From positions 21,514,001 through 21,578,000 of the forward strand of contig JBNRSN020000029.1 of the NCBI GenBank assembly GCA_051313645.2: a stretch of DNA of 64,000 nucleotides. Direction: 5' to 3'. The notes under the pieces are model-generated. The model searched no databases and had not been told where the DNA came from. It saw nothing but the letters and a program-made list of their open reading frames with translations. A program made the position numbers and the translations under genes. Position 1 is the stretch's first letter. The number at the start of each line of letters is the position of its first letter. Source of the stretch: Centroscyllium fabricii. Its lineage: Eukaryota. Below are positions 3,777 through 56,116 of this stretch, piece after piece.

Positions 3777-4255
3777 CTAAATAATTGCAACCAGGGGCGA
3801 TAAATCATATTCTGCAATGCATCTCTGAATTTCCACTGGGACACTAAATCTGTTTTTGCAGAAACTCAAAGTTCTAATCTTAATATCCAGTATCTTAAAT
3901 GTTGATGATAGAAACAGAATAATTTGTCTGTCAATATTGTTGATCTCTAAACTGTACAGATATCTACTATAGGCTAAGTTATCTTCCATAGATGTATAAC
4001 ATTACAAGCTATGGACAGAATAAACTGATGGAATTTCTTCTATTCACCAGCTCAGAATCATTGTGCTTTTCATCATCCTCTTCCATTGGAGACTCTTCCT
4101 CATTCTATTGTCCAGTATAATGTGCCCGTTGGTCAGAGCTTTGAGCAGTAAAAATAACACAAATTGAATGAACAGGGACAAAATGGTTTCCAACCAGAAG
4201 AATGCTCTCCAGATGGTACGGTCTAACAGCTTGATTTTACATAGCAGGACCACCT
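3777..4255 (-). pseudogene. GPR139-like GPCR remnant (TM5-TM7 region), frameshifted
   Basis: Minus-strand peptides IWRAFFWLETILSLFIQFVLFLLLKALTNGHIILDNRMRKSL, HNDSELVNRRNSISL and SQWKFRD match receptor copies A and B (IWVAFLWLETILTPF..., HTDPEM..RKSIILL, SQSKFRE). Confidence 0.8.
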
Positions 4256-7271: not shown

Positions 7272-7858
7272 TGTCATAGATGGAATTCTCCTTTAAGGAT
7301 TACATCTTTGAATTATATGTCTGTTTCTCTGTTTTGTTCATTATTACCTCGTTTTCTTGTAAATATAGCTAATTGTAGCTCGTTTATCATTTGCATGTAT
7401 TGATAGGAATGAGCTAATCAATCTAATTGGCTTGAGCCATATATAAGCTTTGGGTTGGCAACAGGATATTGCCGGATCGTTAGTTTCTGTTACTTGATAT
7501 CTGTGTTCGGTTGCTACTCTCTGTTCCTGTTCGTATTGGATTTCTACCTGTTACAGAAGAGTTGGATTTACTGCTGAACTCAGTGCTGGGATTCATCCCT
7601 TCAGTGAAGCGGATTACTTGGAGTAGATCGGTTTCTAGTTTTGGACTTATTTCTGTTTATCACCATGAACTCTGGTTTGGACTTGTTAATTACATTTACC
7701 AGTACTCTGGATTATAGAATTGTTTATTCTCTGTTGAACACTGCAGTTAATAACTGTATATATATATATATATTTGAGGACTCAGAAATAAAGGATAATT
7801 TATTTCTAAAGACGGACTTCCGGTGTTCTGCATTTGGGCCCTACCACAAACCCTTACA
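7272..7858 (+). repeat. 5' LTR (587 bp)
   Basis: TGTCATAGAT...CCCTTACA. By my count it differs from the 3' LTR by 7 substitutions and 1 indel. Contains TATATAA (7440-7446) and AATAAA (~7789). Confidence 0.95.
7440..7481 (+). promoter_or_regulatory. LTR TATA box and predicted transcript 5' end / self-primer (GCCGGATCGTT, 7471-7481)
   Basis: TATATAA at 7440; 31 nt downstream begins an 11-mer exactly complementary to the PBS-position sequence at 7860-7870. Confidence 0.75.
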
Positions 7859-7859
7859 G

Positions 7860-7870
7860 AACGATCCGGC
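7860..7870 (+). promoter_or_regulatory. Self-priming-type primer binding site AACGATCCGGC
   Basis: Lies 1 nt after the 5' LTR, does not start with TGG (no tRNA CCA complement), and is the perfect reverse complement of 7471-7481. Confidence 0.75.
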
Positions 7871-7875
7871 CAGAA

Positions 7876-9522
7876 ATGGACCCAGCAGAGACACTGAAGC
7901 GTCTAGAACACCTCGAGGGCGCCCTATTTCACCAGGGGCAGACCTTGATGAATATTTGCACTCAGATGGAGCAGTTAACCGTCGCCTGGAACCTGCGGGT
8001 AGCGTCGGATTCGGCAGGGGTCCCGTTACCACCACCCCCGGCTCCAGAAGGGGGGCTGGTACCCAGGCCTCAACTACTAGCTCCCACACTCGAAACCCGA
8101 GTCGGGGAACCGGAACGGTATGCCGGTGAACCCGAGCAGTGTGATCCTTTTCTCACAAGCTGTTCCATACTGTTTTCTTTGCAGCCCCACACCTTTGCCA
8201 ATGGGAAGGCAAAGGTAGCGTTTGTAATAAATCACCTCACAGGAAGAGCCCGGCTTTGGGGAACCGCCGAGTGGGAGAGAGATACTCAGGCTTGCTCTTC
8301 TTTCGAGGCGTTCGCCACCGAATTAAGAAGGGTGTTTGGCAGGGTTAATTTCGGCTCTGAAGCAGCTCGGGGACTCATGAATCTGAGCCAGGGAAATCAG
8401 ACAGTGGCTGATTACGCAATTGATTTTCGAATCAGGGCTCGTCGGAGTGATTGGAATCCGGCTGCATTACGTGAGGTTTTTCTTCATGGTCTTTCTGAAT
8501 ATATCAAGGATGAACTGGTCTCCTACGATCTTCCCTCCACCTTGGATGAACTAATTTATCTTGCCACCAGGATCGATCTTCGTATCCAGGCGCGTCGACG
8601 TGAGAGACGACCGGGAACGTCTGGTCGACATCCTCCGAGTTGGACTCCAGAGGCTTTCATGACACCCAGAGAGACTGCGATAGCAGGGTCAGAGCCAGTG
8701 GGCCCCGAACCAATGCAATGGGGTCGCACTCAAGGGAGATTCGTGGCGCCCAGAGATACTGTGACAGCAGGGGCGGAACCAGGGGGTCCAGAGCCTATGC
8801 AGTTGGGTCGCACCAGTCTTCGGTTGGCGAGGCATAAGGGACCGCACTCACCAGTCAATGGAGTCGTAATGGTGAGCCAAACTCCTGATGGACTCTCTCC
8901 CAATCCACGACCCTTGTGTCAAGCCAAACTTCTTCTCCCCAGGGGATCCCAGACTCTCGTCATCTGTATTGACTCTGGAGCGGACATCAATATCATCGAT
9001 GAGGATCTGGTCACGCAACTGGAGATTGACCGGGAGCCACTGCCACAGCCGGTTCCTGTCAACGTCTTAGACGGCCATCTCCTTGGAACGGTGACACATC
9101 AGACCTCACCTGTTCTGATGCTTCTGTCTGGGGATCATCAGGAGAGCATTCAGTTCCATATCTTGAGATCACCTCAGATTCCGTTAATTCTGGGACACAC
9201 TTGGCTTCGCCGCCACAACCCTCACATTGATTGGAACACGGGAGCTATTTCGGGCTGGAGCCTCTCCTGTCACCAGGTCTGTCTGAAACGGGCTCAGACT
9301 TCGTTGCTTCGCTCGGCAGACCGATACCCGCCTGCTGCCAACCGTAGTCATTCTGGGTCTCCTGAAAATCATGTTGGGCAGAAGGGGTGGCTTCCACCTC
9401 CTCGTCAGTTCAACGGTGGGTTGGTCTACACTGTTCGTCGCCTACTTCGTTCCCGTCATAATTGGATAGGACTTCAGTACCTGGTGGACTGGGAGGGGTA
9501 TGGTCCAGAGGAGAGGTCCTGA
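7876..9522 (+). CDS. Gag-aspartic protease-(partial) chromodomain fusion polyprotein, 548 aa from ATG 7876; the frame continues past the TGA to 9837
   Basis: Gag motifs [18 protein letters not shown] and [15 protein letters not shown], then PEPMQ(W/L)GRT twice. Protease [11 protein letters not shown]...PLILGHTWL. Chromodomain YTVRRLL...[31 protein letters not shown], with TGA at the conserved Trp. The acidic tail ORF 9628-9837 is in the same frame. Confidence 0.85.
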
Positions 9523-9835
9523 GTTCCTGCTCACTACATAAAGGATCTGCAACTCATTGACGACTTTCACTGGAGCCATCCCGACCAGCCAAGTAAGAGG
9601 ACTGCGACTCATGAGGAGTCTGGGCAAGTGATCGGTTCCATACAGATCCAGGAGAGCCTGACCGAGGAGGAGGAATCTGCTGAGGAGGAGGAATCTGCTG
9701 ATGAGGATGATTCTTTTCAGTCTGATTATGAGATGGACATAGAGGAGGGCTTCGAGGACTGTTGGTTCTCCCCCGCACCCCTCCACCCACCCGATCCGGC
9801 ATTTGAGGTTTTGGGACATCAGGAGTCGCCCCCTT

Positions 9836-9852
9836 GAGGGGGGGGGGGGGGG
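9836..9852 (+). promoter_or_regulatory. Polypurine tract
   Basis: GA followed by a G run, ending 3 nt before the TG of the 3' LTR at 9856. Confidence 0.85.
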
Positions 9853-9855
9853 TTC

Positions 9856-10441
9856 TGTCATAGATGGAATTCTCCTTTAAGGATTACATCTTTGAATTCT
9901 ATGTCTGTTTCTCTGTTTTGTTCATTATTACCTCGTTTTCTTGTAAATACAGCTAATTGTAGCTCGTTTATCATTTGCATTTATTGATAGGAATGAGCTA
10001 ATCAATCTAATTGGCTTGCGCCATATATAAGCTTTGGGTTGGCAACAGGATATTGCCGGATTGTTAGTTTCTGTTACTTGATATCTGTGTTCGGTTGCTA
10101 CTCCCTGTTCCTGTTCGTATTGGATTTCTACCTGTTACAGAAGAGTTGGATTTACTGCTGAACTCAGTGCTGGGATTCATCCCTTCGGTGAAGCGGATTA
10201 CTTGGAGTAGATCGGTTTCTAGTTTTGGACTTATTTCTGTTTATCACCTGAACTCTGGTTTGGACTTGTTAATTACATTTACCAGTACTCTGGATTATAG
10301 AATTGTTTATTCTCTGTTGAACACTGCAGTTAATAACTGTATATATATATATATATTTGAGGACTCAGAAATAAAGGATAATTTATTTCTAAAGACGGAC
10401 TTCCGGTGTTCTGCATTTGGGCCCTACCACAAACCCTTACA
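9856..10441 (+). repeat. 3' LTR (586 bp)
   Basis: Near-identical to 7272-7858 and followed by the TSD GTAAT. Confidence 0.95.
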
Positions 10442-13114
10442 GTAATCCCCTTCGTCTTTGAACAGTAGTAGAGTAACACTACACTGGAGTTTGATTTCTG
10501 CTTTATTCTAAAACAGACTTATGAAGCATTAAGGGAACAAGCAATAAGCAGGACCAACTTAAAAGGTTTTAGAGTAGTTGCCTCGAGTTGCAAAAAATCC
10601 TTATATGCTTGCAATTTATGGTCTAAAATTGCACTGTAATGAAAGATCTTATGCGAAAATTTTACTTGAATGAAATGATCAGCGAAGTGGCATAATCCAC
10701 CCGCTGTACTCTCTAAACACCATCTGAGCAATTTCTTCGGATTTTTAAGCTGCGGAAATGAAACTCCACAAAGTTTCGAGAACTTGAATAACTCTCTGCA
10801 AAAATTCAAATGGTGTTGTACAGCCATATACCTGAACAAATCTGAAGTGAGTGGTTTCCTCAAAAATAATGCCTCTCAAACACTGAACATACACGACAAT
10901 AGGGTCCTAAGAAAAGCTGATACACGATTTCTGTGCGTGAACCTGATTTTAACCTCATGTGTACCATTACAGGCTTGATGATGCTTTTATCAAGCAGATC
11001 CTTAGGCAAATGCAATGCTTATTTAACCCACAGCTAACATTTACATCACTCTAAATCTGTAGTGGAAGGTATGTAAAGATGACAATCTATTCCCACATTG
11101 TCCATCTCTCTGTCTTAATCGGAATGCAGCCTTTGGTTTTTGAACGGCAGGAGGCTAGATCAGGCCAATCCAGACCTCTTCAGACGTGCACAGATGCTTA
11201 GTTATATTAGAAGATGGAGTCCAGGTTGATTTGTCCCTCAGTAACCCAAGGTTGCTGCTGCGTATTATATCATCCCAACAGCTGTTCAGGTTATTTGTGA
11301 GATCCCGAGCTGTAAAAGATGACGTTCTATAAACGACACCCACTGCCTACAAATAATTGTCCTCGAAGCATTTTGAGATATTCATGTGTATCATGAAGTC
11401 ACAGAATTTGCTGATTTTTTTTCGATCTCTGTTGCGAGAAGTTTGCTTTTTTCGATGTACAACTGATTTGAGCGCTCTGTAGTGGGAATCCCTCGTGCGA
11501 TGCTGCTGTGACTTCAACAAGCTATCTCAGCAGCTAATCACTTTGCAGAGTTATCGCAGAAAGGGAAGCAGGGAAAGAGAAGCTGGTTTGATCTGGAATT
11601 TAAAAAAAAAATTTGCAAGTAGAAAAACAAAGTTTGTGATAAGGCAGGGACAAATTGTCACGGAAAAATATCAAATAATAACATGGCAGAATGCACTGCA
11701 ACCAGCGAACGAATGACCCCTGTTGTTCATTAGATTACCCGTTTTCCGATTTATGTCACGAGATTTGCATGGCAACTTGCGTTCAGTGGGACATCGAAAC
11801 AGTATAGTGCTGTCTAGTGGGCATCAGGGACTTGTGTGAACAGGGAATGTCACTGTGCACCACATTAACAAATCAGATGGAATAATTATTATTGAGCAGC
11901 GCAGAGGCTGAAGCGAATTATGCTGGGACGTGTGTTACTGTGCAGGATGATGAGGATCCAACGTGAGCTTCTGGCCGTTGGCAACAGCTGCCCAAAATGG
12001 AACGTTTCGCTCCTAGTCATTCCACCGTGAGAGGCACTGCTGTTCTTCGTGAATCCTGGGTCACGGTTGCAAATTACAGTAGTGACGCTCACGGTCAGGA
12101 AGCCAGAGTACCGGGTTCCAGGAGTCACAATGCACTGCTTACACACACCCAGGGGCGAGTAGAGTAAAATACATAAGAGCCCAGAAATTAGCCTTGGATC
12201 CTTCGTACGAGTGCGGGGCTCCCAGTTACACTTACCCTGTACTTTTGCCATTTTGAAATTTTAAGCTGCGAACTCCCGAGTTCGACAGCTGCTTTAGGCT
12301 CTGTTCGAGCTGCTGGTGCAACTGAACGGCGCAATTAATTGGAAATCTCGCACGAGACCACATGATCGGCAGGGCGCCAATCAGTGGAAGCAATCCTCCA
12401 TTCAAAACTTACACGGAGAAATCTGTGTACATTTTGAATTGGAAGAGCTTCAGAAACACATCTAAACACAAAAATAAAATGTAAATAACACCACATATTT
12501 TAACAATAGTCTAACTAACTTAAATTACCTATTTTAAAGAAAAAAAAAATATTAGAATTTTTGTTTAGAGTTTTTAACTGGCCTAAAAGAATACTTACCT
12601 ATCTTTAAAGTTAAAAAAAAATTAAAACATGCAAAAACAATACTTAAAATCTATAAAATAAAGACTTACCTGCTAAGAACGGGTGCTTACATCTGGTATT
12701 TTCAAGTGTAAAATCTTGCATACTTACCCGGATAAAAAAGTCAAAAAATAAAACGGAAGTTCACTGCGCACCTCCTGGTATGCAGGCGAGTGCGATCCTC
12801 CTCGCAGCAGCTCTCCCCCTTCCCCATGGTCCGCCTTCGGAATTGCAGGGAGCAGCTGGAAACGGCTGTTCCATGCGATTTGGAGCTCTGGTGCGCTAAC
12901 AACCGGCTCCAAAATCTCCTGCGAGGATCGGAAATATTGGCCTATTATTTACAACAGTTGTCGGAAAATGGGCAAATTGGCTCAGGGCTGGTTCAACTAA
13001 CATGGGGTCGCTATATTGCACGTTGTGGCTGTTATAAAGACGAAAAGCACACGATAGTAACTTTCACAACCTGACTCCAAAAGAGTTGAGAATCTACATA
13101 CACTTCCCACAGCA

Positions 13115-13800: not shown

Positions 13801-16010
13801 CACTTTGAACATAGGCCCAACCAGTCCCCATCCACCACCACCCTCATACGCCTGGCCGAACGTGTTCTCACAATGAACACATTCTCATTTGACTACAATC
13901 ATTTTCTCCAAATCAGAAGTGTTGCTATGGGTCCTAGCTATGCCTGCATTTTCGTGGGACATGTGGAACACTCTTTGTTCCAGTCCTATTCGGGTCCCCT
14001 CCCTCACCTCTTTTTCCAGTATGTTGATGACTGTATCGATGCTATTTCCTGCTCCCGCCCTGAACTAGACAATTTCATTCACTTTGGCTCTTATTTCCAT
14101 TCTTACCTCACATTCATATTGTCTATCTCCGTCTCTTCCTTCACTTCCTCGACTTCTCCCTCTACATCTCTTGGGTTAGTTTATTGACCAACAGTCACTT
14201 CAATCCCACTGACTCCCACAGCTACATTGACTACACGTCCTCCCACCCAGCCTCACGTAAGGGCTCTATTCCTTTCTCCCAGTTTCTCTGTCTCCATAGT
14301 ATCCGCTCCTATTATGCCACATTCCACCCGATATGGCTTCCCTTTCCTCAACCGTGGATTACCCTCTACCGCGATTCACATGGCCCTCAAGTGTTACCAT
14401 TCTATCTCCGGCAATTCTGCCCTCACACCTGAATCTCCCTCCCGGAACCACAATAGTGTGCCCTTTGTCCTCACCTTTCACCCCACCAACATCCACATTC
14501 AATGGATCATCCTCCACCATTTCTGCCACCTCGAACGTGATCTCACCACCAAATGTATTTTTCCCTCCCTTTTCAGCATTGCATTGGGACAGCTCCCTCT
14601 GAGACAACCTACTCCACTCCACTCTCACCCCCAGCACAACTTGCCCTTCGCCCGGCACCTTCCCGTGGATGTGCAGGAGAAGCAACACCTGCCCATATAC
14701 CTCCCCGCTTCCCACTGTCCAAGACCCAAAACACCCCTTAAAGTTGAAATAGGGATTGACCAGTACTTCTTGCAATCTAGTGTACTGTATTCGCTGCTCG
14801 TGATGTGACCTGCTGTACACTGGGGATACCAAACTCAGATCGGGTGACGACTTTGTGGAACACGTCCGTTCAGTCCGTAGCGGTGACCGTGAGATTCCTG
14901 TCCCCTGTCACTTTAATTATCTGCTTCACTCCCACTCAGAGCACTTTGTCCTTGGTCTATTACATTGTTCCACAGAAGCTCAGTGTAAGCTCCAGGAATA
15001 GCACCTCATCTTCCGATTATGCACACTTCAGCCTTCCGCACTCAATATCGAGTTCAACAATTTCAGATAATAACCCTTTACATTATTACCTTTTTTGTTT
15101 TCCACACCTTTGTCTCGGCCCTTCCCCGCACCCCTTTTTTTCTCTCCCTCATGGCAGCTGTCTCCAATTCTGCTAGTGCATTTCACAGCTAATCTACAGC
15201 TATCTTCTTGCTCCACTTATCCTATTATAATCTCGTCTCCTTTTGAATAACTCTTACTGTCACTTCTCGGCCTTTTGTTCTCTCCCAGCCCCCGACTGGC
15301 CTTCTTAACTGTTTAATTTCAGTCTTAATAAAGGGTCCCGACCCAAAACGCTGACACTTATTTCTTTCTTTAATGATGTTACCTGAACTGCTCAGTTTTT
15401 CCAGCATTTTCTATTGTTATTTCGGATTTCCAGCATCTGCAGTATTTTGCTATCGTACTAGTGTTTGGTTCTCTGCCACACCTAATCTACGAAAGCCTAT
15501 CTTGAAGAAGTTCTGCTCTTCGCTTCGACGGGATCTCCGTTTGGCTCTTCAACCTTGTTCATCTTCATTACTTTCAGTTTCCCTTCTTGTGTTTGATCAG
15601 CTATCTGCCAAGACTGAGTTTCACAGCCACATCATCTTCCTCAGCAATGTCTCCGGATCCACCTTGTTTCACGGGCATTGCAACTAAACTTCCGCACTTT
15701 GTGCTTCGGATACACGCAGGAATACAAATACTTCCAGGATATTCATCATTACTCGAACTGCTGCTCTCGCCACATCAATAGATCCATACTCAACGCCATG
15801 TGGCACCACAAGAAACCTCTCGACCTCTCTCTTCAGCAGCATCGAAGCACAATATCTCAAAGCTGTCTGGGTCAACAGTTCCATTTTGTCCTTTGACTCA
15901 TCCGGTGCTTCATGAAAATACTTTTTTTCCCCTTTTCGATGTCAAGGATCGCAATCTTTATTAATTCTTGAACAGCAATGCTCCTACGATAACTTCTTCC
16001 CCTTCACTTT
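13801..16010 (+). mobile_element. Degenerate Penelope-like element (RT and GIY-YIG remnants, pLTR-type end near 15450, then a probable adjacent 5' segment)
   Basis: QIRSVAMGPSYACIFVG...FQYVDD (RT), PTDSHSYIDYTSSHPASRKGSIPFSQF, GIY-YIG-like remnants near 14780-14950, and terminal ttccagcatctgcagtattttgct. Absent from the paralogous position in unit B. Confidence 0.8.
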
Positions 16011-17125
16011 CTTGGGGAGTTACGGGTTAAAGTGGAAATTATTTGCTTCTTGGGACAGCGGTTATTTTAAGATAACCAGGATGGTTTTGAAGTATCTTGA
16101 GAGGAACTCCTGGTGAAATGATGCGTGAGTGTCTCCCCGAGTAACGTGAATCACCTCGGCATGATTCCGGAAAGGGTTTCAGTATGGTTTCGAAGAACAT
16201 TCTATTGAAAGTTAGGGAAGGATAGGAGGAAACTTTGATTGATAGGCATCTCCTGGAGTTCTTTATTTATTTTCCCACACTGAACAGTGACAATAATATA
16301 TTTGACAGCCTGGCCACTATCCGATATTGGGACCATGCAGGAGTGATTGAGAAAGAACAGCGATCTTTTGATAATTATATTTTAAAGCTCAGAAATGGCT
16401 TGTATCCGAGGTCAAGTGTAGGATGACAGGGGAATACCGGTGTGTGTGCAATTTTGATATGTTGTGCATGAGCCAACTTTCATGGGGTAATGCATGGTTT
16501 AGATGCACTGATAAACGTGTCGGAAAATGCTTAGTTACTTGACAACACTGAGACATGAAATGGTTAACGGGTCCCAGGAATGTGAGATTTCTTTAAAAAA
16601 ATGTATTGACTTAAGCTACATAGCTAACTAAAATTTCAATGAAGCAATATAGTGTTAAACGCAATGGCAGCCATCAGCAGCATGGGCATTACTTTAAAGA
16701 GGAATATAGAATTTAAATTTCTAAAATTCAGGGTTGAATTCCTTTGAGTTGACAATTAAATTGGAATCACTGCAAGATAGTGGGAAATAATACTTAGCAG
16801 GAATATCTACAAGATTCATACTATTAAAAGGGGAACTGGGTAATATTTCAACTCCCTGATTTCTTGTGGTCTACTGCACAATGTATTATTAATATTTTTG
16901 TCTGTATCATGATGTGAAAGATTAAAAATATGAAATATCCTCTAGACGAGCAAAGGTCTTGAGATAGATATGTGATGCGAATAATACTAAAACCTTAAAT
17001 GTTAGGGTTATTAGTCGAAATTCTTGTATCTTGGAGCAGCAGTACTTCAAAAATAAACAGGGTCGATTTGAAGTACCGTGCGAGGAATGCGGAGTTGCTC
17101 TTCTGCTGCGTGAGGTGCTTGTGTT

Positions 17126-18462
17126 AGCGCAGACCAAGCGGAAGCCAGCCAGACCACTGGATAGGAGCTCGGGCAATCGGGCCGAAAACCGGAGGGAAAA
17201 GAAGCAAGTGAGCTTTAACCAGGCTTTTGTTAAAGCCACAGGGGGAGAAGAGGACAGCGGCAGCCGGTAAGCAGCTGCAAGTCTCGCGGGCCTTTCTTTT
17301 GAGGGGGCGGGACACAGCAGTATAAAAGGGGAGCTGAGGACTGCACTTTAAAGCGCAGACCAAGCGGAAGCCAGACAGACCACCGGAGAGGAGCTCGGGC
17401 AATCGGGCCGAAAACCGGAGGGAAAAGAAGCAAGTGAGCTTTAACTAGGCTTTTGTTAAAGCCACAGGGGGAGAAGAGGACAGCGGCAGCCGGTAAGCAG
17501 CTGCAAGTCTCGCGGGCCTTTCTTTTCAGGGGGCGGGACACAGCAGTATAAAAGGGGAGCTGAGGACTGCACTTTAAAGCGCAGACCAAGCGGAAGCCAG
17601 CCAGACCACCGGAGAGGAGCTCGGGCAATCGGGCCGTAAACCGGAGGGAAAAGAAGCAAGTGAGCTTTAACCAGGCTTTTGTTAAAGCCACAGGGGGAGA
17701 AGAGGACAGCGGCAGCCGGTAAGTAGCTGCAAGTCTCGCGGGCCTTTTTTTTCAGGGGGTGGGTCACAGCAGTATAAAAGGGGAGCTGAGGACTGCACTT
17801 TAAAGCGCAGACCAAGCGGAAGCCAGCCAGACCACCGGCGAGGAGCTCGGGCAATCGGGCCGTAAACCGGAGGGAAAAGAAGCAAGTGAGCTTTAACCAG
17901 GCTTTTGTTAAAGCCACAGGGGGAGAAGAGGAGAGCGGCAGCCGGTAAGTAGCTGCAAGTCACGCGGGCCTTTATTTTCAGGGGGCGGGACACAGCAGTA
18001 TAAAAGGGGAGCTGAGGACTGCACTTTAAAGCGCAGACCAAGCGGAAGCCAGCCAGACCACCGGAGAGGAGCTCGGGCAATTGGGCCGAAAACCGGAGGG
18101 AAAAGAAGCAAGTGAGCTTTAACCAAACTTTTGTTAAAGCCACAGGGGGAGAAGAGGACAGCGGCAGCCGGTAAGTAGCTGCAAGTCTCGCGGGCCTTTC
18201 TCTTCAGGGGGCGGGACACAGCAGTATAAAAGCGGAGCTGAGGACTGCACTTTAAAGCGCAGACCAAGCGGAAGCCAGCCAGACCACCGGAGAGGAGCTC
18301 GGGCAATCGGGCCGAAAACCGGAGGGAAAAGAAGCAAGTGAGCTTTAACCAGGCTTTTGTTAAAGCCACAGGGGGAGCAGAGGACAGTGGCAGCCGGTAA
18401 GTAGCTGCAAGTCTCGCGGGCCTTTCTTTTCAGGGGGCGGGACACAGCAGTGTAAAAGGGGA
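17126..18462 (+). repeat. Tandem array of a 226-bp monomer, ~5.9 copies
   Basis: Units start at 17126, 17352, 17578, 17804, 18030 and 18256. Each has GGGG(C/T)GGG and TATAAAAG (first TATA at 17321; last copy TGTAAAAG). Confidence 0.95.
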
Positions 18463-18852
18463 ACTGTGTGCTAAACCCGAAACACTACGTGGTAGTGTTT
18501 CCCACCCTTCCATCCTCCTCTAACCTTAGGGGGTTAGAGTGATTTTAAAAAGGTATGTTCAAATTATTTTTATTTTCAGGAGCCCAACCTAGGTGGAAAG
18601 GGTTCCAGGACAGAGAAAGCCTTCACAACAGGAGGCAAGGGACTGGTGAGTACTTTCCTCAAACTTTTCTAAAAACTACTAAAAGTAGTGGGATTCAGTA
18701 AATCTAAAAAGGAAATGAAGGGTACTTATAGATCGGTCTAAAGTAAGCTTCAGGAAGTAAAAGTTAATAAATAAGCCAAAGTAGCTTCAGGAAGTAAAAG
18801 TTAAGAAATAAGCTAAAACTAGTAAATTAAAAGGTAATATAAGGGTTAAGTC

Positions 18853-19797
18853 ATGGTAGGACAGCTCAGACCTGTGTCATGCTCCTCCTGTGCCATGTGG
18901 GAAATCAGGGACACTTCCGGTGTCCCTGACAACTATGTGTGCGGGAAGTGTGTCCAGCTGCAGCTCCTGAGGGACCGCATGGTGGCCCTTGAGCTGCTGA
19001 TGGACTCACTTTGGAGCATCCACGATTCTGAGATGGTTGTGGATAGCACATTCAGTGAGTTGGTCACACCGCAGGTAAAGGCCAGCGTAGACAGGGCATG
19101 GGTGACCAAAAGGCAGAACAAGGGCAGGAAGGTAGTGCAGGAATCCCCTGCGGTTATCTCCCTTCGAAACAGGTTCACCGTTTTAGATACTGTTGGGGGA
19201 GATGACTCATCAGGGGAAGGCACCAGCAGCCAGACTCATGGCACCATGACTGGCTCTGCTGCAAAGAAGGGCGGGAAAAGGAGTGGCAGGGCTCTAATGA
19301 TAGGGGACTCAATCGTAAGGGGAATAGATAGGAGTTTCTGTGGCCGCGACCGAGACTCCAGGATGGTATGTTGCCTCCCTGGTGCAAGGGTCAAGGATGT
19401 CTCGGAGCGGGTACAGAACATTCTGGAGGGGGAGGGGGAACAGCCAGTTGTCGTGGTACATGTTGGTACCAACGATGTAGCTAAAAAAAGGGAGGAGGTC
19501 CTACAAGCAGAATTTAGGGAGCTATGAGCTAAGTTGAAAAGTAGGACCTCGAAGTTAGTAATCTCTGGATTACTACCAGTGCCACGTGCTAGTCAGAATA
19601 CAGAGAGCAGGATAGAGAGGCTGAATACGTGGCTTGAGCAGTGGTGTAAGAGGGAGGGTTTTAAATTTTTGAGGCATTGGAACCAGTTCTGTGGCAGGTG
19701 TGACCTCTACAAAAGGGACGGTCTACACCTAGGCAGAGATGGAACTGATGTTCTCGGGGTAATATTTGCTAAAGCAGTTCGGGAGCATTTAAACTAG
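18853..19797 (+). pseudogene. CR1 ORF1 (zinc finger plus SGNH/GDSL esterase) with one premature stop
   Basis: CSSC...CGKC, IGDSIVRG, HVGTND, DGLHL. In-frame TGA at 19525-19527 splits ORFs 18853-19527 and 19534-19797. Confidence 0.88.
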
Positions 19798-19939
19798 TAT
19801 GGCAGGGGGCTAGGAACCTATGTAGTGAAAAAGAGGAAAGCAAAATGCAGCCAGAAATAAATGGTAAAAGGGTGAGAAACAAAAAACAAAATACACAAAG
19901 GGCCGAAGTAATTCATTAAAAGTGTGAGCAAAAAACAAG

Positions 19940-22741
19940 CCTGAAGGCTTTATACCTTAATGCAAGAAGCATTAGGAACAAGGTGGATGAATTAGCAGTA
20001 GAAATAGAGGTAAACAAATATGATCTAATTGGGATTACGGAAACATGGCTGTAGGATTGTCAAGGCTGGGAACTTAACATACAGGGGTATACAATATTTA
20101 GGAAGGATCGACAAAAAAGAAAGGGAGGAGGGGTAGCATTGCTGGTAAAAGAGGGGATAAATGCAATTGAAAGGAAGGATATTAACTCGGTTAATACGGA
20201 ATCTATATGGGTAGAACTAAGAAATAGCAAGGGGCAGAAAACGTTAATAGGAGTGGTATATAGGCCTCCAAATAGTAATATGGAGGTAGGGGAGGGCATC
20301 AAAAGGGAAATTAGAGAAGCGTGCAATAAGAGCTCAGCTGTCATCATAGGTGACTTTAACTTGCATATAGATTGGACTAGCCAAATTAGTAAAAATAATG
20401 AGGAGGAGGAATTCCTTGAGTGTTTAAGGGATGGTTATCTGGATCAATATGTCGAGGAACCAACTCGGGATCAGGCTATCTTGGACTGGGTACTGTGCAA
20501 TGAGAAGGGACTAATTAGTAATCTTGTTGTACGGGGACCCTTGGGTCAGAGCGATCATAACATGATCGAATTCTCACTCATAATGGAAAGCGAAGAAACT
20601 GACTCAGAGACTAAGGTCCTGAATTTAAATAAGGGGAATTATGATGCCATGAGCCGGGAATTAAGTAAGTCTGATTGGGCAGCGTTTCTGGGGGGACTGG
20701 CGGTGGATAAACAATGGCAAGCATCTAAAGACAGAATGGCAGAAATTGTTTATACCAATCTGGCATAAAAAGAAATCTAAAAAGGTGACTCAACCGTGGA
20801 TAACAGGGGAAATTAGGGACAGCATAAAATCCAAAGAAAGGGCATATAAAATAGCCAAAAAAAGCACCAGACCTGAAGATTGGGAACAGTTTAGGATACA
20901 ACAAAGGAGGGCAAATGGATTAATCAGGAGAGGAAATATAGCGTACGAAAGTAAGCTTGCGGCAAACATAAAAACTAACTCCAAAAGCTTTTACAAGTAT
21001 ATTAAGAGGAAAAGACTGGTGAAATCCAAAGTCGGTCCATTACAGTCAGATTCTGGGGAATATATAATGGGAAATAAGGAAATGGCAGACCAATTAAATG
21101 CATATTTTGGGTCTGTCTTCACAAAGGAAGACACCAAAAACCTCCCTGAGATATCGGGAACCATAGGGACAATTGCAAGGGAGGAACTGACAAAAATCAA
21201 TATCTCTAAGGATATGGTGTTGGGGAAGCTAAAGGGACTGAAGGCTGACAAATCCCCAGGGCCTGATAACATGCATCCTAGGGTACTCAAGGAGGTGGCC
21301 CTAGAGATAGCAGATGCTTTAAGGATAATTTTCCAGAATTCGATAGACTCGGGAACAGTGCCCATGGATTGGAGGTTAGCTAACGTTACCCCACTATTTA
21401 AAAAGGGGGGTAGGGAAAAAGCGGGTAATTACAGACCTGTAAGCCTTACATCGGTGGTGGGCAAAATACTAGAGTCCATCATTAAGGATGTAATAGCAGA
21501 GCACTTGGCAAATGGGGACAGGATAGGACAGAGTCAACATGGATTTACAAAAGGTAAATCGTGCTTGACGAATCTATTGGAATTCTTTGAGGAAGTAACT
21601 GGTAAAATAGATGGGGGAGAGCCAGTAGATGTGGTGTTCCTGGACTTCCAAAAAGCCTTCGATAAGGTCCCACATAAAAAGATTAGCATGTAAAATCAAG
21701 GCTCATGGGATAAGGGGAAAAGTATTGACGTGGATAGAGAACTGGCTGGCAGATAGAAAACAGAGAGTTGGAATAAACGGCTCATTTTCTGAATGGCAGG
21801 CAGTAACAAGTGGGGTACCTCAGGGATCTGTCCTGGGTCCCCAGCTGTTCACAATTTATATTAATGACCTAGATCAGGGAATCGGATGCAGCATCTCCAA
21901 ATTCGCAGACGACACTAAACTAGGAGGGGGGGTAGGCTCAGAAGAAGAGATCAGGAAGCTCCAGAGCGATTTGGACAAATTGGGGGACTGGGCAGATACA
22001 TGGCAAATGCACTATAATGTGGATAAGTGTGACGTTATCCACCTTGGGGGCAAAAACGGGAGGGCAAATTATTATTTAAATGGCAATAGATTGGGAGATG
22101 GGGAAGTACAGAGAGACCTGGGTGTTCTTGTGCACCAGTCATTGAAGGCGAGCATGCAGGTGCAACAGGCGGTCAGGAAGGCAAATGGTATGCTGGCCTT
22201 CATATCAAAAGGGTTAGAATACAGGAACAAGGACACCTTACTACAGCTGTACAGGGCACTGGTGAGACCACACCTCGAGTACTGTGTGCAGTTTTGGTCG
22301 CCTCATCTGAGGAAGGATGTTCTTGCCATGGAAGGAGTGCAGCGGCGATTCACCAGGCTGATACCAGGAATGGCAGGAATGACCTATGAGGAGAGACTAT
22401 GTAGTTTGGGGATGTACACACTGGAGTTTAGAAGATTGAGAGGGGATCTCATAGAAACTTATAAAATTCTGACAGGCCTGGACAGACTAGATGCAGAAGG
22501 AATGTTTCCGATGGCAGGAGAGTACAGAACTAGGGGACACAGTTTAAGGATAAGGGCTAAACCATTTAGGACAGAGATGAGGAGGAATTTCTTCACCCAG
22601 AGAGTGGTGAACCTGTGGAACTCACTGCCACAGAGGGCAGTGGACGCCAGCTCATTAAATATATTTAAGAGGGAATTAGATATATTTCTGCAGGCAAAAG
22701 GGGTTAAAGGTTACGGAGAGAAGGCAGGGACGGGATACTGA
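19940..22741 (+). pseudogene. CR1 ORF2 (endonuclease plus reverse transcriptase), disrupted
   Basis: LYLNARSIRNK, GITETWL* (TAG 20052-20054), GDFN, SDHN, KSPGPD, LDFQKAFDKV, GVPQGSVLGP, KFADDTKL. Frameshifts near 20745 and 21680; ends GTGY*. Confidence 0.9.
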
Positions 22742-25011
22742 ACTGAAGGATCAGCCATGATCTCATTGAATGGCGGAGCAGGCTCGAAGGGCCGAATGGC
22801 CTACTCCTGCTCCTATCATCTATGTATCTATGTATATGTATCTAATAAGTGAGAGTAATTACGTCAGCCATGAATGATACAAGCTAGCTGTAGGGGCTAG
22901 TTTAATAAACCTAGGCAGAGGCATCAATTAGCTATATTATAGAAACAATAACAGTTAATAAAGCCCGTTCTTCAGCAAGATTAAGAACAGTTATATCAGC
23001 AAGTCCTGTTTGAAGCAAATGGCTTGCGACTAAGCAACACACCTGATTTAATGAGTAGACTGTCTTTAACACCTTGGGGAATCGAAACATCATGAGATCC
23101 ATTCTATGCCATACAAATGTGAAATAGGAAAAATATGGTGTATAAATTAGCACGATTTTCATTTGTTCTTCGGAGAGCTCGAAGGATATAGATACCGAAA
23201 AATGGCTCTCTCTATATCCAGTTAGCCCGATCACTCTGCCGTCAATCAATAAACTCTGTTCCGCATATTCTACCATTAACTGTCGCTTGGATATGCAAAA
23301 CGAGTTAGTGTGAACCAGTGAATGACGGAAGTTGAATGCTAACGTTTACCACTGAAAGGATTTGTTGTGACTGATTTGTAAGATTGGTCCCATGTCGGAG
23401 AAATATCATGCGCTTCTTACATGGTGCTCGTGCCAAAGAGTCACCATTGAAAATGTAAGTTAGATCAAACTGTTGTCACGGGGGTCCCATATTTTGGACT
23501 GTTAATCATCACAGAAGCAGAGAATGATAGAAATGTATAGCTTAGAAAGAGGCCATTCGGCCCATCATCTCCATGCCGGCTGCCAAAGAGCAATCCACCC
23601 TAATACCCAATGCTTAGAGTTTGGAAATGATTCAGGTTAATGTGTTCATATTCAGCTGTTGTCGCCTCTGTGTATGACAAGGTTCTCAGGCTTGTTCACC
23701 AAGCTCAGACTTCTCCTCTGGCTCTGTGACTTCAGTCTGCACACATTGATTTCTTGGGACTTCATCTAGGACCTCTTGGGTATCACTGGGGTGTTTGCAA
23801 CATTGGGTAACATGCAACAGGTCTCTCTGCGGCAGGAGATTGCGATGACCGGTGCCGCAGGCTATCCAGGCATCTGACATTGCTGTTAACTGTGGTCCAG
23901 AAGAAGCAGGAATTCTCCTCTATGTCGCTCGATGATTCCTTGGATTTCCCCTACCCTCTATTCCTCCCTTCCCTGAACACGTTCTCTGCCCAACAACGTT
24001 TAACGGAGGAAACAGAGCAGGCGGCTGCCTAATTATTTCCCGCCATTAAAATCGGCGGAGCCTGCGCACTGCGTCTCCCCAACACGCAGGTCACTCACGC
24101 TCCCGCCCGATATTTAATATGAAGTCCAGACGAGATAGCTGTTCCACTTCTGCTCTGGCACAAACATTAATCGCTCTATCATTTCTCTCCAGCATTTCAG
24201 ATGTCCAGGCAGAAATATAGACATGAAATCCTGAAACGTGATGGGACGTGAGGCGGGTTTCTGGGCGGGACGACAGCGAACACAGCATAAATGGGGGTCC
24301 ACAACCCCTCCCGCCGCCTTCCTGCCCACGTGTAAATTTCACCCAGCGGGTCCAGTTGGCCTGCCTCAGTTCAGCCCGGCATCAGCGGGCTGCTCGTTGA
24401 ACTCATTAAGGGCCCTTCATTGGCATCGGTAATGCCATTTTAATGGTCCCTTGCTACTTTCACCCTCTTCCCACCGTGACCCCGCCTGGTGGGAACATCA
24501 CCGGTTAAAGCTGGCAGAAACTCAATCAGCTGGGTGACTGCCACCTTCAAGGCATGGGAAACAGCAGCTACACAGCAGCTTGCTAACCTTCACAATGCTA
24601 AAGGTGAAACTGGCAGCCAAGTGTGCCTGAATTCAGTGCTCAAAGAAATTAAAATCATTTACCTGTCAGCTGCATCCCACTCACTTAGAGAATGCGCTAC
24701 GAGCTGTGTCTGTGAAGCAAGCTCTTAATGACCCTGGCAATCAGTATCTGTTTACATTCCACTGAAACCACAGACAAACAGATCCAGACTAGTTAAAGCT
24801 GTCAATCGTAGATTTGTGGTTTCATCTGTTGACAGAGCATTGTGACATCATAATGCCCTGAAATCACAGATAGAGAAACAGCAAGCCTATCCCTACAGCT
24901 GCCAATGTTGGCGTGCTGCTGACTGTGAGTCACAATGCATTATGTCAACATTAAATGTAAACAACCACTTCCGAACTGTCAATCAGACTTTGTGGTTTCT
25001 GAGCTATTGAC

Positions 25012-25232
25012 CAAAGATATGCAGGTTAGGTGAATTGGAGATACTAAAAATTGCCCATGAGCATGTGTGTGAATTATAGTTCCTAGAGTTGGGGATGTCG
25101 GGGGATATGGGGAGAGGGTAGCAGTGGGGTGCTGTGTTTGGATGATCAGCCATGATCTCGACAAAATGGCGGAGCGGGCTCAAGGGCCGAGTGGCCTAAT
25201 CCTGCTCCAATTTTCTGTGTTTCAATGATTCT
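25012..25232 (+). mobile_element. 5'-truncated HE1-like SINE
   Basis: ccaaagatatgcaggttagg...ggatgatcagccatgatctc...ggcctaatcctgctcc; homologous to 1433-1680. Confidence 0.8.
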
Positions 25233-26479
25233 GTGACAATGCAGTATGAATCGCAATGGCCTGGGTCTGCATAGAAACTGACTAAGCTCTTCAGGCCTTT
25301 CAATCAAAAGCCCGCCGGAAATGGACAAACTGGAACCACGCCCCACGCTTCCTGACTGTAGTGTGTATTGGAAACGGCTCTGACAAGCGGGGATTTAATT
25401 GCCCACTTGAGGCAAAATTGCTTTGGCATCCCTGGCCCTTGAACGGGCGGGTCAGAAACCTGACGCGCCAGAAACGTGGTAATTCCCAGCACCTCCGGGA
25501 AAGTTTACCCCATAATGTTGAATGAATTCCTTCAATTCAACACAGTGGGAGCTCGACAGACTTCACAGTTTGTACGGCATTGTTTAATGTCTATATATAT
25601 TGTCTCCTTCCAATAAAAGTTAGTTTAATCGTTCTCAAATCAGAGACATTAAATCCACCGATTGCTATTCCATTTCCAAGAACATTCTAAACAGACAATC
25701 CACTTCAAAACACAAGTAGTTACGTTTTTGCTTCATGAATTTCCAAATAAGATCCTGGACAAAGATCAATGAAACCCCATAAAATTATATGTTTATTTTT
25801 TACACAGGCTGAGAGGCCTGCACATTTAACGTCATCACTGCCATGACAAAAATGAAATTATTCTAATGATGTTTCACGATGTTGTACGGCTAAGCGTTTT
25901 AGAGGGTTTACTCATATTACATTTAAATGGTCAAACTGACTAATTAACCATTAATCCATCTTTCTTTCCCGCGCAACGTCCTTAAATATTTCTAGAAATC
26001 TATCATTGCTGCATAGCCGTGGGGCTGCTCAGCTGTAAACAACAGACTATATCACTTTGTGCGTGTATCTGAATGTTATTCGATCTCACCTGTAACTTTG
26101 AGCTCACTTAATATAACTTATATATATATATATATATAGGATAAATGAAAGATTATAGAGAACATCTTTATGTAATTAAGATCTAGAGAATCAAAATCCA
26201 TCAAAAATACGTATTTATTCCATCAAAAGCCTTGCATGCGCCTATCATAAATATCCTCAGCTTCGGGAGTGTTGTAATATGACAGCAGTAAGGAAGCTGT
26301 CGAAATATTTTTTTTGAAATGTATGATGACAGTAATGTTCTAGACTCGTTAATCTTTTAAAATTCATATCTTTGCAAAATGTCCCTGATCAGTAGCAGTG
26401 AATATTACTCTATTCAAATGATTGTAAATAATGAGAATTGTTGTGTAATGCTCATGTGTCATTTGAGGTTTCTCTCAGG

Positions 26480-26487
26480 TATAAATA
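26480..26487 (+). promoter_or_regulatory. TATA box of receptor copy A
   Basis: TATAAATA ~80 nt upstream of ATG 26562; same motif and context (tataaataagacctta) at 53287 in copy B. Confidence 0.6.
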
Positions 26488-28032
26488 AGACCTTAGTTTG
26501 AGAGCAAAGTTCTGCCTTTGCATAACAGTTTACAGGCAACAAACATCGCTTCTCTCCGAATATGGGAAAGCCGGGTATCATGCAGATAGAAAATATTTAT
26601 TACCCGATTCTTGCAAGAATCGGTGTTCCTGGTAAGCCGCTTATAATCAGATAATTTCCACCTTTAACAGTGCTTCAATGTGTCACTATTCCTGCTGTCT
26701 GTGTAAAGATATTATGTGTTTAATTCGCAGAGACTGAATATCGACACTAAAGAAATAAGTTAACAGTCTCCTAGTTTCTTTATTTTGTTAATGTAAAAAC
26801 CTGAGAGGAATCACCGTTTACTCTGACTATTTAATTGCAGCAATTTATTGGGGATGTTTTGGCCTTGATAGATTTTCTTGTAGTTCTGCGCCTTCTCCAA
26901 TTGTCAATTCCGGATCGAGTACTCAAGCGATTCCTGGAGGCTACTCCAGCAAAGGCAATAGAAATGTTTTGCTACATTTTTGTGAACCCCGGAAAAACGG
27001 AAGAGAGCCTGCAGCGTCCGCAAATACACACTGGTGTAATGCTGACGTATTGTGGTCTCCCAGGGATTGTATACCGCCTTCAGGCCTAACCAGCTGTTAC
27101 ATTAGCATCGGAGACGACTGATTTCTTACATTATCCAACGGGGAGCGGCTCCAGGCGCTCTTCTGAGGTGTGGCCGTAATGTTGTTTTATACTTGTTTTA
27201 TATAAAAGAGTGATGCATGTAGTTGCCCAGCCGCGTGTAAACAAGGTTGAAAGCCAAACCTCATCTGCTATTTCCTGTGAGTAGAATTTATCTTTAGCGC
27301 AACTCTAACTTTTCTGTATATTTATACTAAATCTACAGACTATAGTGTAGATGTTGGTCTTTACCACCTGGTCATTTTGCGTCATCTTTGTGGAGCGCAG
27401 CGTGGAGCGGGGGAGACAATGGAAATGTAATTTGGGTAAAACGGGGTTCCAATTTGCTATCACCAGGTTTACCCCGCTGCCTCAGATCAATTTCACGCCC
27501 CATTGTCATAATATTCCGAGTTGGCACAGGATCAATAATTTGTGAGCGTGTATTTTGACGAGGTCATTGAGCTCAGGCAACTTATCGGTACTGCTTATTG
27601 AACAACCTGAAGTGCTTGATTCTGAAACTGTGTGATAAATGGGCCTGCATTTAACGACCCACACGGGTGTGTTCGAGGTGTCAACACACCCGTATGGAAG
27701 TCACAAGTGATACCTGCTTTTAGCAGCATAAAAGTTCAAAGAGTACACATATATCATTTTAACTCATACATAATGTAAAAATGATTTTAAGAAGGTAAGT
27801 TTCTTTTTAGCCACGTCAAAACTTTACATGTATTTTGAAAATAATTTTTCTGTTTATAATATTTAATGTAATGTAATTTTTTAGTAATTGAAAAAACGTA
27901 TTGTTTACATTTATTTAATACTGTAGTGTCTTACGTCAGTGCTCCCCATTCATTCTTTTGACAGGTCTACTGTTCAATTTTCGGTTTGATTGACTTCAAC
28001 AGAACTCAAGATCAAGCAAGGCATATAACCCG

Positions 28033-28285
28033 CCCAAAGATGTGCGGGTTAGGTTGATTGGCCATGATAAATTGACCCTTAGTGTTAGGGCGATTGAATA
28101 TGTGGGGTTACGGGGATTGGTTGGGATATGTGTCGGTGTAGACTCGATAGGGATCGAGGGATATGGGGAGAGGGCAGGTGCGGGTACTGGGTTTGGATGA
28201 TCAGCCATGATCTCATTGAATGGCGGAGCAGGCTCGACGGGCCGAATGGCCTGCTCCTGCTCCTATCTTCTATGTTTCTATGTCT
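28033..28285 (+). mobile_element. 5'-truncated HE1-like SINE in receptor A intron
   Basis: ccaaagatgtgcgggttaggttgattggcc...gatcagccatgatctcattgaatggcggagcaggctcg...(ttctatgt)n. Confidence 0.88.
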
Positions 28286-28389
28286 ATATAAAGGCGACGG
28301 ATGCGCTACCACCTGGTTAGCGCCGAAGTTAAATGATACATCTTTCCCAATTTCCGTACGCATGGCAGAAGTAGACTAAATGCAACAAT

Positions 28390-29265
28390 GGGCTATGTTT
28401 TCCTGTGGCCCGCTGGCCGCTGGTGCGCGCTCCCGAGCACCCGCGGTGTACGCGCACGTGATTTTTTTTTTCTGAAATGCCGTGTTTTTTTCGTTCGGAG
28501 GGGACGTCTTTATTTTGGTCCGGGGTGCAAGCCACGCCCACTGAGGTCGGCTTTACCCCGAACGAAGCATAGATTCGGCCAGCGGGATTAAGAATATCAG
28601 GTAGGGAAGCACCTTTTTTTAGTTTTTTTTCAGTTTCTAGGAAGCTGTTTTTTTTGAAGTTTCTGCCTTTTCTGATGTTAGTTTTTTTTTGAGAAGTGAA
28701 AAAAACAGGTTTAAAGTTATTTTTTTATTGATTCCTTTGGAGATATTTGTCTGTGGTCTTTCAGCTTGTGAATGGGTAGGTTTTGATATTTTTTAGTGAA
28801 AGTGAAAAAAAATCGCGATTTGAACGCGATGTCAGCCGCTCTGAGGCTTTCAGAGCTGCTGACATCGCGTTGAAATCCCGATTTTTTTTCATTTTCACTA
28901 AAAAATATAAAAACCTACCCATTCACAAGCTGAAAGACCAGAGACAAATATCTCCAAAGGAAACAAAAAAATAATAACTTTAAACCTGTTTTTTTCACTT
29001 CTCAAAGCTGCCTGCAGCCTCTTAAGACACCTTTCTACATGTGCAGCAAAAGAGAGACTTCCCCACGTGATACACCCGTATTTTGAGCAGCTGACTACAG
29101 GAAATCATCAGTGCAAGGTCTTCCTGGGGAGGAAGCTGAAGCCCCTTGCCCATCAGCACAGGAAATTCACGTTTCTGGTAATCACCCGAGCTGCACCCAC
29201 AGAAGGCATTTCTGACCCCCCTTCGTGGGGGTGCAGCTCTTCTGGAGCACAGGAAAACATGGCCC
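28390..29265. mobile_element. MITE with GGGC-terminal TIRs (PIF/Harbinger-superfamily-like) and a large internal palindrome
   Basis: TIRs GGGCTATGTTTTCCTGTG / CACAGGAAAACATGGCCC (17/18); flanks AAT/ACT. Internal inverted repeat 28688-29006. Same family as 56117-57156. Confidence 0.8.
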
Positions 29266-30514
29266 ACTATCATCCAAGTGGTAACGGTGTAAATGACCCT
29301 CTTGCAATTGGCCCTTTCTTTCTGCGTGACAATCCAACAGAAAATTAGATCAAATCAATATTAGAGTTGAACATCCCTGTTGGTAGATTTTTGTAAATTG
29401 GACGAAAGAAAAATACAGTGTCACGCATCAAGTCCAAAATACGGAATCGATGCATTGTGAGATGGTAATTATCAAGGTTTTCTGTATAGACACACGTATT
29501 TCCAATTCTATGTTTGTATAAGCTACAGTTCCACAAATTAAGATTACACCCCTGTCAGAGATTTCGATCTCAGACAACAGCTGGTGTTCTTTTACATTCG
29601 GCTCAGCCGGGATGCCAAAGGACTGTTTTTATGTCGTCAAATGGTGGACAATATTTTGACTTCCACTCAATTACACAGCATGGAATACATCTTGGAGAAA
29701 TGTTGAGAAATTATTTACGATAATTAATGAGAAATTATTTAAGGAAAGCTTCAGCTATCTGGGGGTAGAAATTCTTGGGCGGAATGCCCCTGCCAATATT
29801 CAGCTCCATTGGTCTAATGGGACCTACTAATGTTTCAAGCGGGAAGATAACGGCCGACCCACATATTACAATCCGAGACAATCGTGGTCCTGGTTTGCAA
29901 AGCACAGTCATTCTTTCCAGAGCCCTCGCTTCATATTATCAGCCATTGCACGTTATTAATAATCGAAATTTCAAATGTGGTTTAAATGTTGGCATCTGAG
30001 CAACACCACCGTCCACATGTTCAATAATATTTGATATATCATTAACTTCCCTCCATCCATGTTCAGACCCCGCATATCGCTCGCCATTTAACTGGTTAAT
30101 TTACTGTAAGCCATTTGGGTGTTACAAAGTTGTCCCAATCCATAATGAAATGGTTGTCATGTGTCACTGTGAAATCTTCCTTTGCTGATCATTTGCTGAC
30201 GAAAAGCACAGGAAGGAAACATGTTCGGAATTTTCACCTGCTTCCAGACGACAATAGATAGAATATTGCAGCCAGCATCATGTCATCACTCTGAATCCTT
30301 CATTGCAAGATTATTGCGGATATTTGCAATGAGGAGTTACTCGGCTCCATTTTGAACCTGAGTATAAATTAGGACTGGCCTTGAGTTTCGCCCACCCGCT
30401 GTTATCTGTTCCTAGATACGCAACGCAGTTTTAATGGAAAAAACCATTAGGAACCTGCACCACAATGATTCAGGAGGGTCAAGGATAAGAAAATCCACCT
30501 CTCTTCTTGGATTC

Positions 30515-39468: not shown

Positions 39469-39869
39469 GAAACATAGAAACATAGAAACTAGGAGCAGGC
39501 CATTCGGCCCTTCGAGCCTGCTCCGCCATTCATTGAGATCATGGCTGATCATTCAAACCCAGTACCCCGCCCCTGCCCTCTCCCCATATCCCTCGATCCC
39601 TATCGAGCCTGTATCGACACACATCCCACCCTATCCCCGTAACCCCACTTATTCAATCCCCCTAACAATAAGGGTCAATTTATCATGGCCAATCAACCTA
39701 ACCCACACATCTTTGGACTGTGGGAGGAAACCGGAGCACCCGGTGGAAACCCACGCAGGCACGGGGAGAATGTGCAAACTCCACACAGATAGTACCCGAG
39801 GCTGGATTTTAACCCGGATCTCCAGTGCTGTGAGACAGCAGTGCTAACCACTGTGCCACCGTGCCGCCC
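39469..39869 (-). mobile_element. Full-length HE1-like V-SINE
   Basis: Reverse complement of the 1280-1680 family, including tRNA head and tail. Confidence 0.9.
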
Positions 39870-42000: not shown

Positions 42001-42144
42001 CCTGAAGTCGGCAGTATAACTGAGAGCTCTTTTTACAGTTGATAGAAGGGTTGCATAACATTACTGCTGGAAATCCCTCTTTGTTTCCCGGGACCTGGCT
42101 CTGAGTGCCTGAGTGTGGGAGTGATATAGATCTTGTCCTGTAAT

Positions 42145-56113: not shown

Positions 56114-56116
56114 ATT

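Follow-up and report, generated by a model that had tools for sequence, protein, structure and literature searches.

We identified a decayed full-length CR1 LINE in the 64-kb stretch of Centroscyllium fabricii DNA analysed here (the window). The element is headed by a tandem array of about six 226-bp units, and this array probably serves as a relay promoter of its CR1 family: the TATA box of one unit would start transcription at the next unit, one unit would be lost with each jump and duplication would restore the number. The array, its motifs, their phase, the junction with the flanking DNA and the linkage of the array to ORF1 and ORF2 are all read directly in the window. Promoter activity, the position of the start site, the loss of one unit per round and the re-expansion of the array are what we infer from this arrangement. 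The relevant features are the following.

16010–17125, no strand assigned: 5' flank of the LINE, approximately 72% alike to unit B (48132–49500); sets the insertion point.
17126 to approximately 22840, plus strand: decayed full-length CR1 LINE, delimited by flank alignment across the insertion and by Pfam domains; its parts in order are the 5' array, unique 5' UTR, ORF1, ORF2, 3' UTR and a short microsatellite tail.
17126–18466, plus strand: tandem array, period 226, 5.9 copies, 96% matches (Tandem Repeats Finder).
17126, 17352, 17578, 17804, 18030 and 18256, plus strand: starts of the array units, 226-bp period.
17208–17303, plus strand: candidate splice-like signals as found in each unit (unit 1 given), two donor/acceptor-like pairs.
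17304–17328, plus strand: GC box and TATAAAAG of unit 1, recurring every 226 bp.
18434–18458, plus strand: sixth GC box and TATA site, the TATA mutated here and intact in relatives; predicted start near 18482, in the unique UTR.
18467–18852, plus strand: unique 5' UTR (leader), AT-rich (GC 37%), with donor-like sites at 18553, 18646 and 18743; covered by contigs of relatives.
18473–18539, plus strand: double-hairpin block, arms 18479–18488/18492–18501 and 18518–18525/18532–18539.
18853–19797, plus strand: ORF1, with an N-terminal CxxC...CxxC motif (zinc-finger type) and an SGNH esterase domain; one internal stop (19525).
19800–22741, plus strand: ORF2, endonuclease and reverse transcriptase; start approximate, stops at 19917 and 20052, two frameshifts.
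22742–22840, plus strand: 3' UTR and short (TATG/TATC)-type tail, common to other CR1 pieces and SINE-like repeats in the window.

We defined the insertion point through an alignment in which the sequences on either side of the LINE were matched to their paralogue, unit B, across the insertion. This places the 5' junction at 17125/17126 with an ambiguity of approximately 1 nt, in agreement with the first-pass annotation, which had the element begin at 17126, 31 nt below the TATA phase, where homology to unit B stops. Because the alignment of the flank to unit B crosses the insertion point at this junction, the array lies inside the insertion. A target-site duplication of at least 4 nt was not found around the insertion.

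Judged by its esterase ORF1 and by the endonuclease and reverse transcriptase of its ORF2 (Pfam Exo_endo_phos_2, E 1.6e-11; RVT_1, E 2e-12 and 7e-14), the element is of the CR1 type. The start of its ORF1 also resembles, by eye, rows labelled CR1 in the part of the supplement of PMC13343379 that was covered. The zinc-finger motif of ORF1, the short tail and the lack of a clear target duplication likewise agree with a CR1 LINE. The esterase ORF1 and the tail, which is a short microsatellite without poly-A, place the element outside the L1 clade. ORF1 shares 71% identity over 315 amino acids with a relative, P0001, that matches an ORF1-encoded protein of known structure (PDB 4c1b, E 2.6e-29), which we take to be the ZfL2-1 protein. 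Among the 53 relatives found, the best that carry a name belong to a sawshark (68–69%), rays and other sharks, which points to a cartilaginous fish as host. The copy in the window is dead, its reading frames interrupted by three stops (19525, 19917 and 20052) and by two frameshifts; the stop at 19525 is private to this copy and absent from the relatives in run contigs. All other CR1 pieces in the 64-kb window are cut short of ORF1, and the region 16900–19000 gave no match to Rfam.

The first-pass annotation had described a CR1 LINE headed by some six tandem 226-bp monomers, and this description stands, both for the array and for the ORF1 and ORF2 domains behind it. Its statement that each monomer ends with a GC box and then a TATA box holds for five of the six units in either motif. 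The TATAAAAG TATA is found at 17321, 17547, 17773, 17999 and 18225, and the sixth site (18451) is mutated in this copy and reads TGTAAAAG. The GC box GGGGCGGG lies 9 nt upstream of the TATA in five of the six units, with a GT variant, GGGGTGGG, in unit 3. The first-pass annotation had recorded neither the signals resembling splice sites that recur in each unit nor the conserved hairpin block past the array, both discussed below. When one unit was shuffled 20,000 times with its dinucleotides preserved, 0.1% of the shuffled sequences contained TATAWAWR, 17.6% contained a GC box alone and none contained a GC box followed by a TATA. On both strands of the 64-kb window, the only pairs of a GC or GT box with a TATA were the five in the array. 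We identified no copy of the 226-bp unit elsewhere in the window and no match to it at the element's 3' end, and the upstream flank is host sequence.

The start of the element, and of each unit, lies 31 nt below the TATA phase (17352 − 17321 = 31, ±1 nt). Because the phase of the monomers is itself defined by where the element starts, the 31-nt distance from a TATA to the next monomer and the beginning of the element at this phase amount to a single observation. A distance of 31 nt is the usual one between a TATA box and a transcription start. A random end would land 28–34 nt below a TATA in 7 of 226 cases (3%), a figure to be read in the light of a single genomic copy and of a test made after the pattern was seen. 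In the array, the first A of the element is preceded by another A, where a typical initiator would have a pyrimidine. The word most like an initiator, TGCACT, lies only 24 nt below the TATA.

Under the relay promoter that we propose, the GC box and TATA ending each 226-bp unit would set the start of RNA polymerase II approximately 30 nt downstream, where the next unit begins. Such a transcript would lack the promoter that made it and retain all the promoters behind it, and reverse transcription to its extreme 5' end would yield a copy starting at the TATA-set phase. Because the RNA drops its own promoter, a complete copy would have one promoter fewer than its parent, and the six units kept by the window copy would thus imply a parent with at least seven. 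Units would be regained through duplication; without re-expansion, the lineage would run out. The last TATA would produce a short-leader RNA from near 18482 and, from it, promoterless copies.

The history of the array is consistent with this proposal. Private differences among the units amount to 21 of 1341 sites (1.6%). Change of 1.6% would be expected to introduce 2.4 stops into the ORFs and change of 6% would introduce 9.2; the three stops seen fit the former value, and array and body are therefore of approximately the same age. From the same match between unit divergence and ORF decay it follows that the array came in with the element, in a nearly homogeneous state. A satellite beside which the LINE had landed was considered and rejected, as homology of the flank to unit B extends to 17125 and array and body are equally young. 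Duplication or conversion of units, before or after the insertion, has left traces in the array: two variants are common to neighbouring units (units 1 and 2, and units 3 and 4), and two such pairs arose by chance in 0.6% of simulations (0.006). Amplification after the insertion may by itself account for these two variants.

Relatives of the element were found in sequencing runs. Part of the 5' region was present in 16 of the 19 listed runs. These come under six organism labels and one gut metagenome label, with two rows unlabelled; none of the 16 contained half of the 5'-region words and none is on record as RNA. Contigs of four of the 19 runs were aligned at an 80% threshold to 18212–19900, a stretch that includes one unit, and covered 30 of 30 bins in three runs and 23 in one. 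Every covering contig of all four runs has an A at position 18452, which shows that the family has an intact proximal TATA. In run X10, the unit is joined to the unique UTR by a contig covering 18364–18527. In run X11, a contig of depth 8 leads from 18435 back to 18269 via 38 letters, 25 of which match the window junction by eye, and lacks approximately 21 nt that hold the tail of the GC box and the TATA (compared by eye). This contig shows a homologous head-to-tail junction in another organism, with a unit that lacks the TATA. Runs X3 and X2 contain a variant that skips approximately 40 nt (18292–18333).

The contigs of the four runs, which give no transcription starts, showed no clusters of beginnings or ends. 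Summed depth in X3 was 259,094 over 18497–18553, 7,840 over 18326–18382 and 236 over 18212–18268, with a steep drop upstream of approximately 18440, and upstream depth was also lower in X2 and X11. Such a drop would be unexpected were this exact array typical of those organisms, but it does not translate into copy number because contig depth cannot rank the parts and diverged units are missed at 80%.

In broader collections, where shark DNA is not expected, the unit motif had no match among metagenome contigs or prokaryote genomes and the UTR motif had none among viral contigs. Metagenome contigs yielded ORF1 relatives at 38 loci, with 26–54% identity at 37 and a short 75% match at one, and no DNA-level match to the 5' region at any of the 38; genome and viral contigs contained no ORF1 relatives. 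Two of these 38 loci (L016, 599–961; L017, 308–681), which represent distant LINEs of the esterase type, have a repeat of approximately 203 bp in two decayed copies upstream of ORF1; this repeat is uninformative on phase.

Mouse L1 carries monomers of approximately 200 bp followed by a tether and has phased 5' ends, and its monomers are described as internal promoters (PMC5381506, PMC6454616, PMC9022269). The L1 elements of mouse and rat (L1Md A, Tf, Gf) resemble the window CR1 in having tandem CpG-rich units of approximately 200 bp, followed by a unique tether a few hundred bases long and then ORF1. A fixed phase of the 5' ends and maintenance of the array by duplication would also be common to both, as judged on the side of the window CR1 from one copy. 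However, mouse L1 belongs to another LINE clade and starts near YY1 or AP-1 sites, with the YY1 site at the start in its T and G monomers, whereas the window unit has no YY1 core and a GC box and TATA lie 31 nt upstream of the phase of the 5' end. The word TATA does not occur in the main texts of PMC6454616 and PMC9022269.

We consider it unlikely that the array works as mouse L1 arrays do, with a start of the CpG-island or initiator type set at or below the start site, phased ends, an accessory TATA and a self-sufficient 5'-most unit. The unit is CpG-rich, with a GC content of 57% and a CpG observed/expected ratio of 0.68 vs 0.65 for the whole window and approximately 0.4 for the ORFs; because the window as a whole already reaches 0.65, its CpG-island character is only modest. 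The phased 5' ends of mouse monomers coincide with CAGE peaks located close to YY1 or AP-1 sites (PMC6454616, PMC9022269), and several of the CR1 tandem units described below lack a canonical TATA, both of which speak for such a start. Yet the majority sequence of the unit contains no YY1 core, neither CCAT nor ATG, and a GC box and TATA at exactly −31 would be unexpected by chance.

Returning to the relay promoter, published CR1 consensuses provide a comparison beyond the window. According to the Fig. 4 legend of PMC13343379 (2026), some CR1-group elements that lack ORF1 have repeating subunits of 100–500 bp, in 1–5 copies, close to their 5' UTR; the window CR1 differs in having ORF1 and six units. 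The words promoter, TATA and tandem have no occurrence in the main text of that paper. Within its supplementary table 2 (hereafter the supplement), 8 of approximately 46 parts were examined by eye, over the first 400 nt of each consensus. In these parts, tandem 5' units are clear in five of the 23 CR1 rows of catshark and in three of the 24 of dogfish, and three of five tortoise rows have a repeat with a GC box and a TATA. Skate and sturgeon CR1 consensuses have such units too, and among those of shark, skate, sturgeon and tortoise some include a GC box and a TATA.

Ten rows of the supplement combine a 5' repeat with a TATA-like box, and by eye four of them start +32 to +35 below the box: ScyCan_CR1-11b (+34), GopEvg_CR1-2 (+32), RhiTyp_CR1-2a (+32) and RhiTyp_CR1-7 (+35, TTTAAAA box). 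The other six are out of phase, with ScyCan-19 at +22, GopEvg-4 at +44 and GopEvg-5 at approximately +52, and LeuEri-1, RhiTyp-11 and CarCar-14 starting upstream of the box. By hand calculation fewer than one of the ten would be expected at +32 to +35, for rows that were picked by eye, from related families, and whose consensus ends were set by a pipeline. Six tandem rows lack a canonical TATA (ScyCan-6, -7a and -7b; SquAca-7, -9 and -15b), and the units of the three ScyCan rows contain octamer-like and partly CCAAT-like words. In stingray consensuses, which show no visible repeat, TATA-like promoters lie approximately 100 nt in from the 5' end. Two motifs of the window's 226-bp unit were absent from the first 400 nt of every row.

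Two further observations were made in the supplement. Promoter words of the TGACGT, CCAAT and TGCGCA types lie beside internal TATA-like boxes in many shark and ray CR1 5' UTRs. Tandem 5' units are also seen in the L2 rows SphPun_L2-6, TacAcu_L2-1 and CalMil_L2-1 (PMC13343379).

These data also bear on ordinary 5' truncation within a longer array, with the 31-nt spacing a coincidence. Such truncation is the rule for LINEs (PMC2666801), every other CR1 piece in the window has lost ORF1, and we have a single copy and a pattern tested after it was seen. However, the 3% chance of an end at 28–34 nt and the similar spacing in four of the ten published consensuses make this explanation quite doubtful. 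For the relay promoter, the 31-nt spacing, the non-chance TATA, the equal ages of array and body, the contig linking unit to UTR and the four in-phase consensus starts all fit. The same observations are in line with the proposal of the first-pass annotation that this copy came from a transcript of an upstream TATA, although from one copy such an origin can only be inferred. Against the relay promoter count the single copy, the six consensuses out of phase, the tandem units without TATA and the TATA-less X11 junction, as well as the A before the start, the initiator-like word at 24 nt and the stingray internal promoters without a repeat.

Each unit also contains signals that resemble splice sites. 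In unit phase these are a donor GTGAG at 83, an 8-bp inverted repeat at 87–111, CACAG at 112–116, a second donor GTAAG at 142 and a pyrimidine tract with CAG at 166–178. Two or more GTRAG words occurred in 2.4% of unit shuffles. The gaps from a donor-like site to the next acceptor-like site are 34 and 37 nt; typical vertebrate introns are longer, and donors in one unit could join later acceptors. Folding of one unit gave a z of −1.1, indicating no special structure. That the units are mainly RNA-processing modules, in which splicing from a donor to a later acceptor trims the leader for translation, the true promoter is a single site and the TATA-like text belongs to the module or to a secondary short-mRNA promoter, seems highly improbable to us: in its favour are the hairpin and the two pairs of donor and acceptor in each unit, the clusters of donor, reverse-donor and TATA-like words that recur at the 5' ends of shark CR1 elements in the supplement and the functional splice sites of zebrafish ZfL2 elements, but the unit has no ATG that would need removal, the 31-nt phase is left unexplained and no joint at the unit signals was found in the aligned contigs, which cannot show absence and of which one run is only guessed to be RNA. 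A role in splicing can coexist with the relay promoter.

Downstream of the array, the double-hairpin block is conserved in shark CR1 families behind unrelated 5' units in the consensuses examined, and a 12-nt piece of it occurs in seven rows of the supplement, all of them shark CR1 (PMC13343379). Transcription from the last TATA is predicted to start within the first arm of this block.

The Drosophila elements HeT-A and TAHRE resemble the relay proposed for the window CR1 in that, within a head-to-tail array, a sequence is transcribed from a promoter upstream of its start site. Their promoter lies in the 3' UTR of the neighbouring element, whereas the promoter-like unit of the window CR1 is repeated in its own 5' end (PMC2615633). 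We found no promoter of the HeT-A type, located in the 3' UTR of an upstream element, for the window CR1. The window CR1 is mouse L1-like in layout and HeT-A-like in logic, and a member of neither group. Zebrafish ZfL2-1 has a tandem array and splice sites in its 5' UTR, although the array was not confirmed in the literature searched. It shares this arrangement and an esterase ORF1 (via PDB 4c1b) with the window CR1; unlike the latter, it belongs to the L2 clade.

The surroundings of the element include two old duplicated units, at 16010–34252 and 48132–63691, which are mostly 70–80% alike and have an inverted third match at 3920–4252. Each contains a rhodopsin-family (7tm_1) receptor ORF (32929–33411, a weak match; 57579–58217, E 2.5e-18), and the pair looks like a receptor gene cluster. 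An LTR retrotransposon at 58314–62746 has 226-bp LTRs that are 97.8% alike and a minus-strand open ORF of 1286 amino acids (reverse transcriptase, RNase H, integrase). Kinship of the array unit with these LTRs, at 58314 and 62521, was rejected, as there is no similarity. A further element (7272–10442) has 588-bp direct repeats, 98.6% alike, flanking a gag and protease ORF of 570 amino acids that has no reverse transcriptase match. The direct repeat 1–908/2634–3542 (99.6%, 2633 bp apart) may represent a recent duplication, an LTR pair or an assembly artefact. An inverted repeat at 28688–29006 has 157-nt arms, 94% complementary and 5 nt apart, with related sequence near 56516–57162. SINE-like repeats of approximately 400 bp (1258–1672, 39469–39896, 42143–42516 and 51929–52335) share the CR1 3' end; ARAGORN found no tRNA gene.

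Parts of this picture are already known. Repeating 5' subunits have been reported in the CR1 group (PMC13343379, in the legend cited above) and mouse L1 is an established case of phased 5' ends (PMC6454616); the novelty that the first-pass annotation implied for a CR1 monomer array was overstated to that extent. We found no paper on a TATA-type CR1 promoter or on TATA-phased CR1 arrays in a search that excluded most subscription literature and Repbase reports.

LINE promoters are generally regarded as internal (PMC6454616, PMC2615633), and CR1-group elements make up 22–34% of shark and ray genomes (PMC13343379). A variant of the relay type is possibly widespread beyond the family of the window. 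As a tentative extension, relay arrays with a GC or CCAAT box and a TATA, losing a unit per jump and regaining units by duplication, might be a general, unrecognised strategy of vertebrate CR1 elements from sharks to tortoises. Such a strategy would be LTR-like at the 5' end only; it would overturn the rule of internal promoters and make the number of units a generation counter. If the relay array is true, it would show a LINE using an ordinary TATA promoter and would predict exact start sites and 5' ends. The number of units would limit the rounds of jumping open to a lineage without re-expansion, and the jumps would scatter TATA promoters and splice signals in large numbers over shark and ray genomes.
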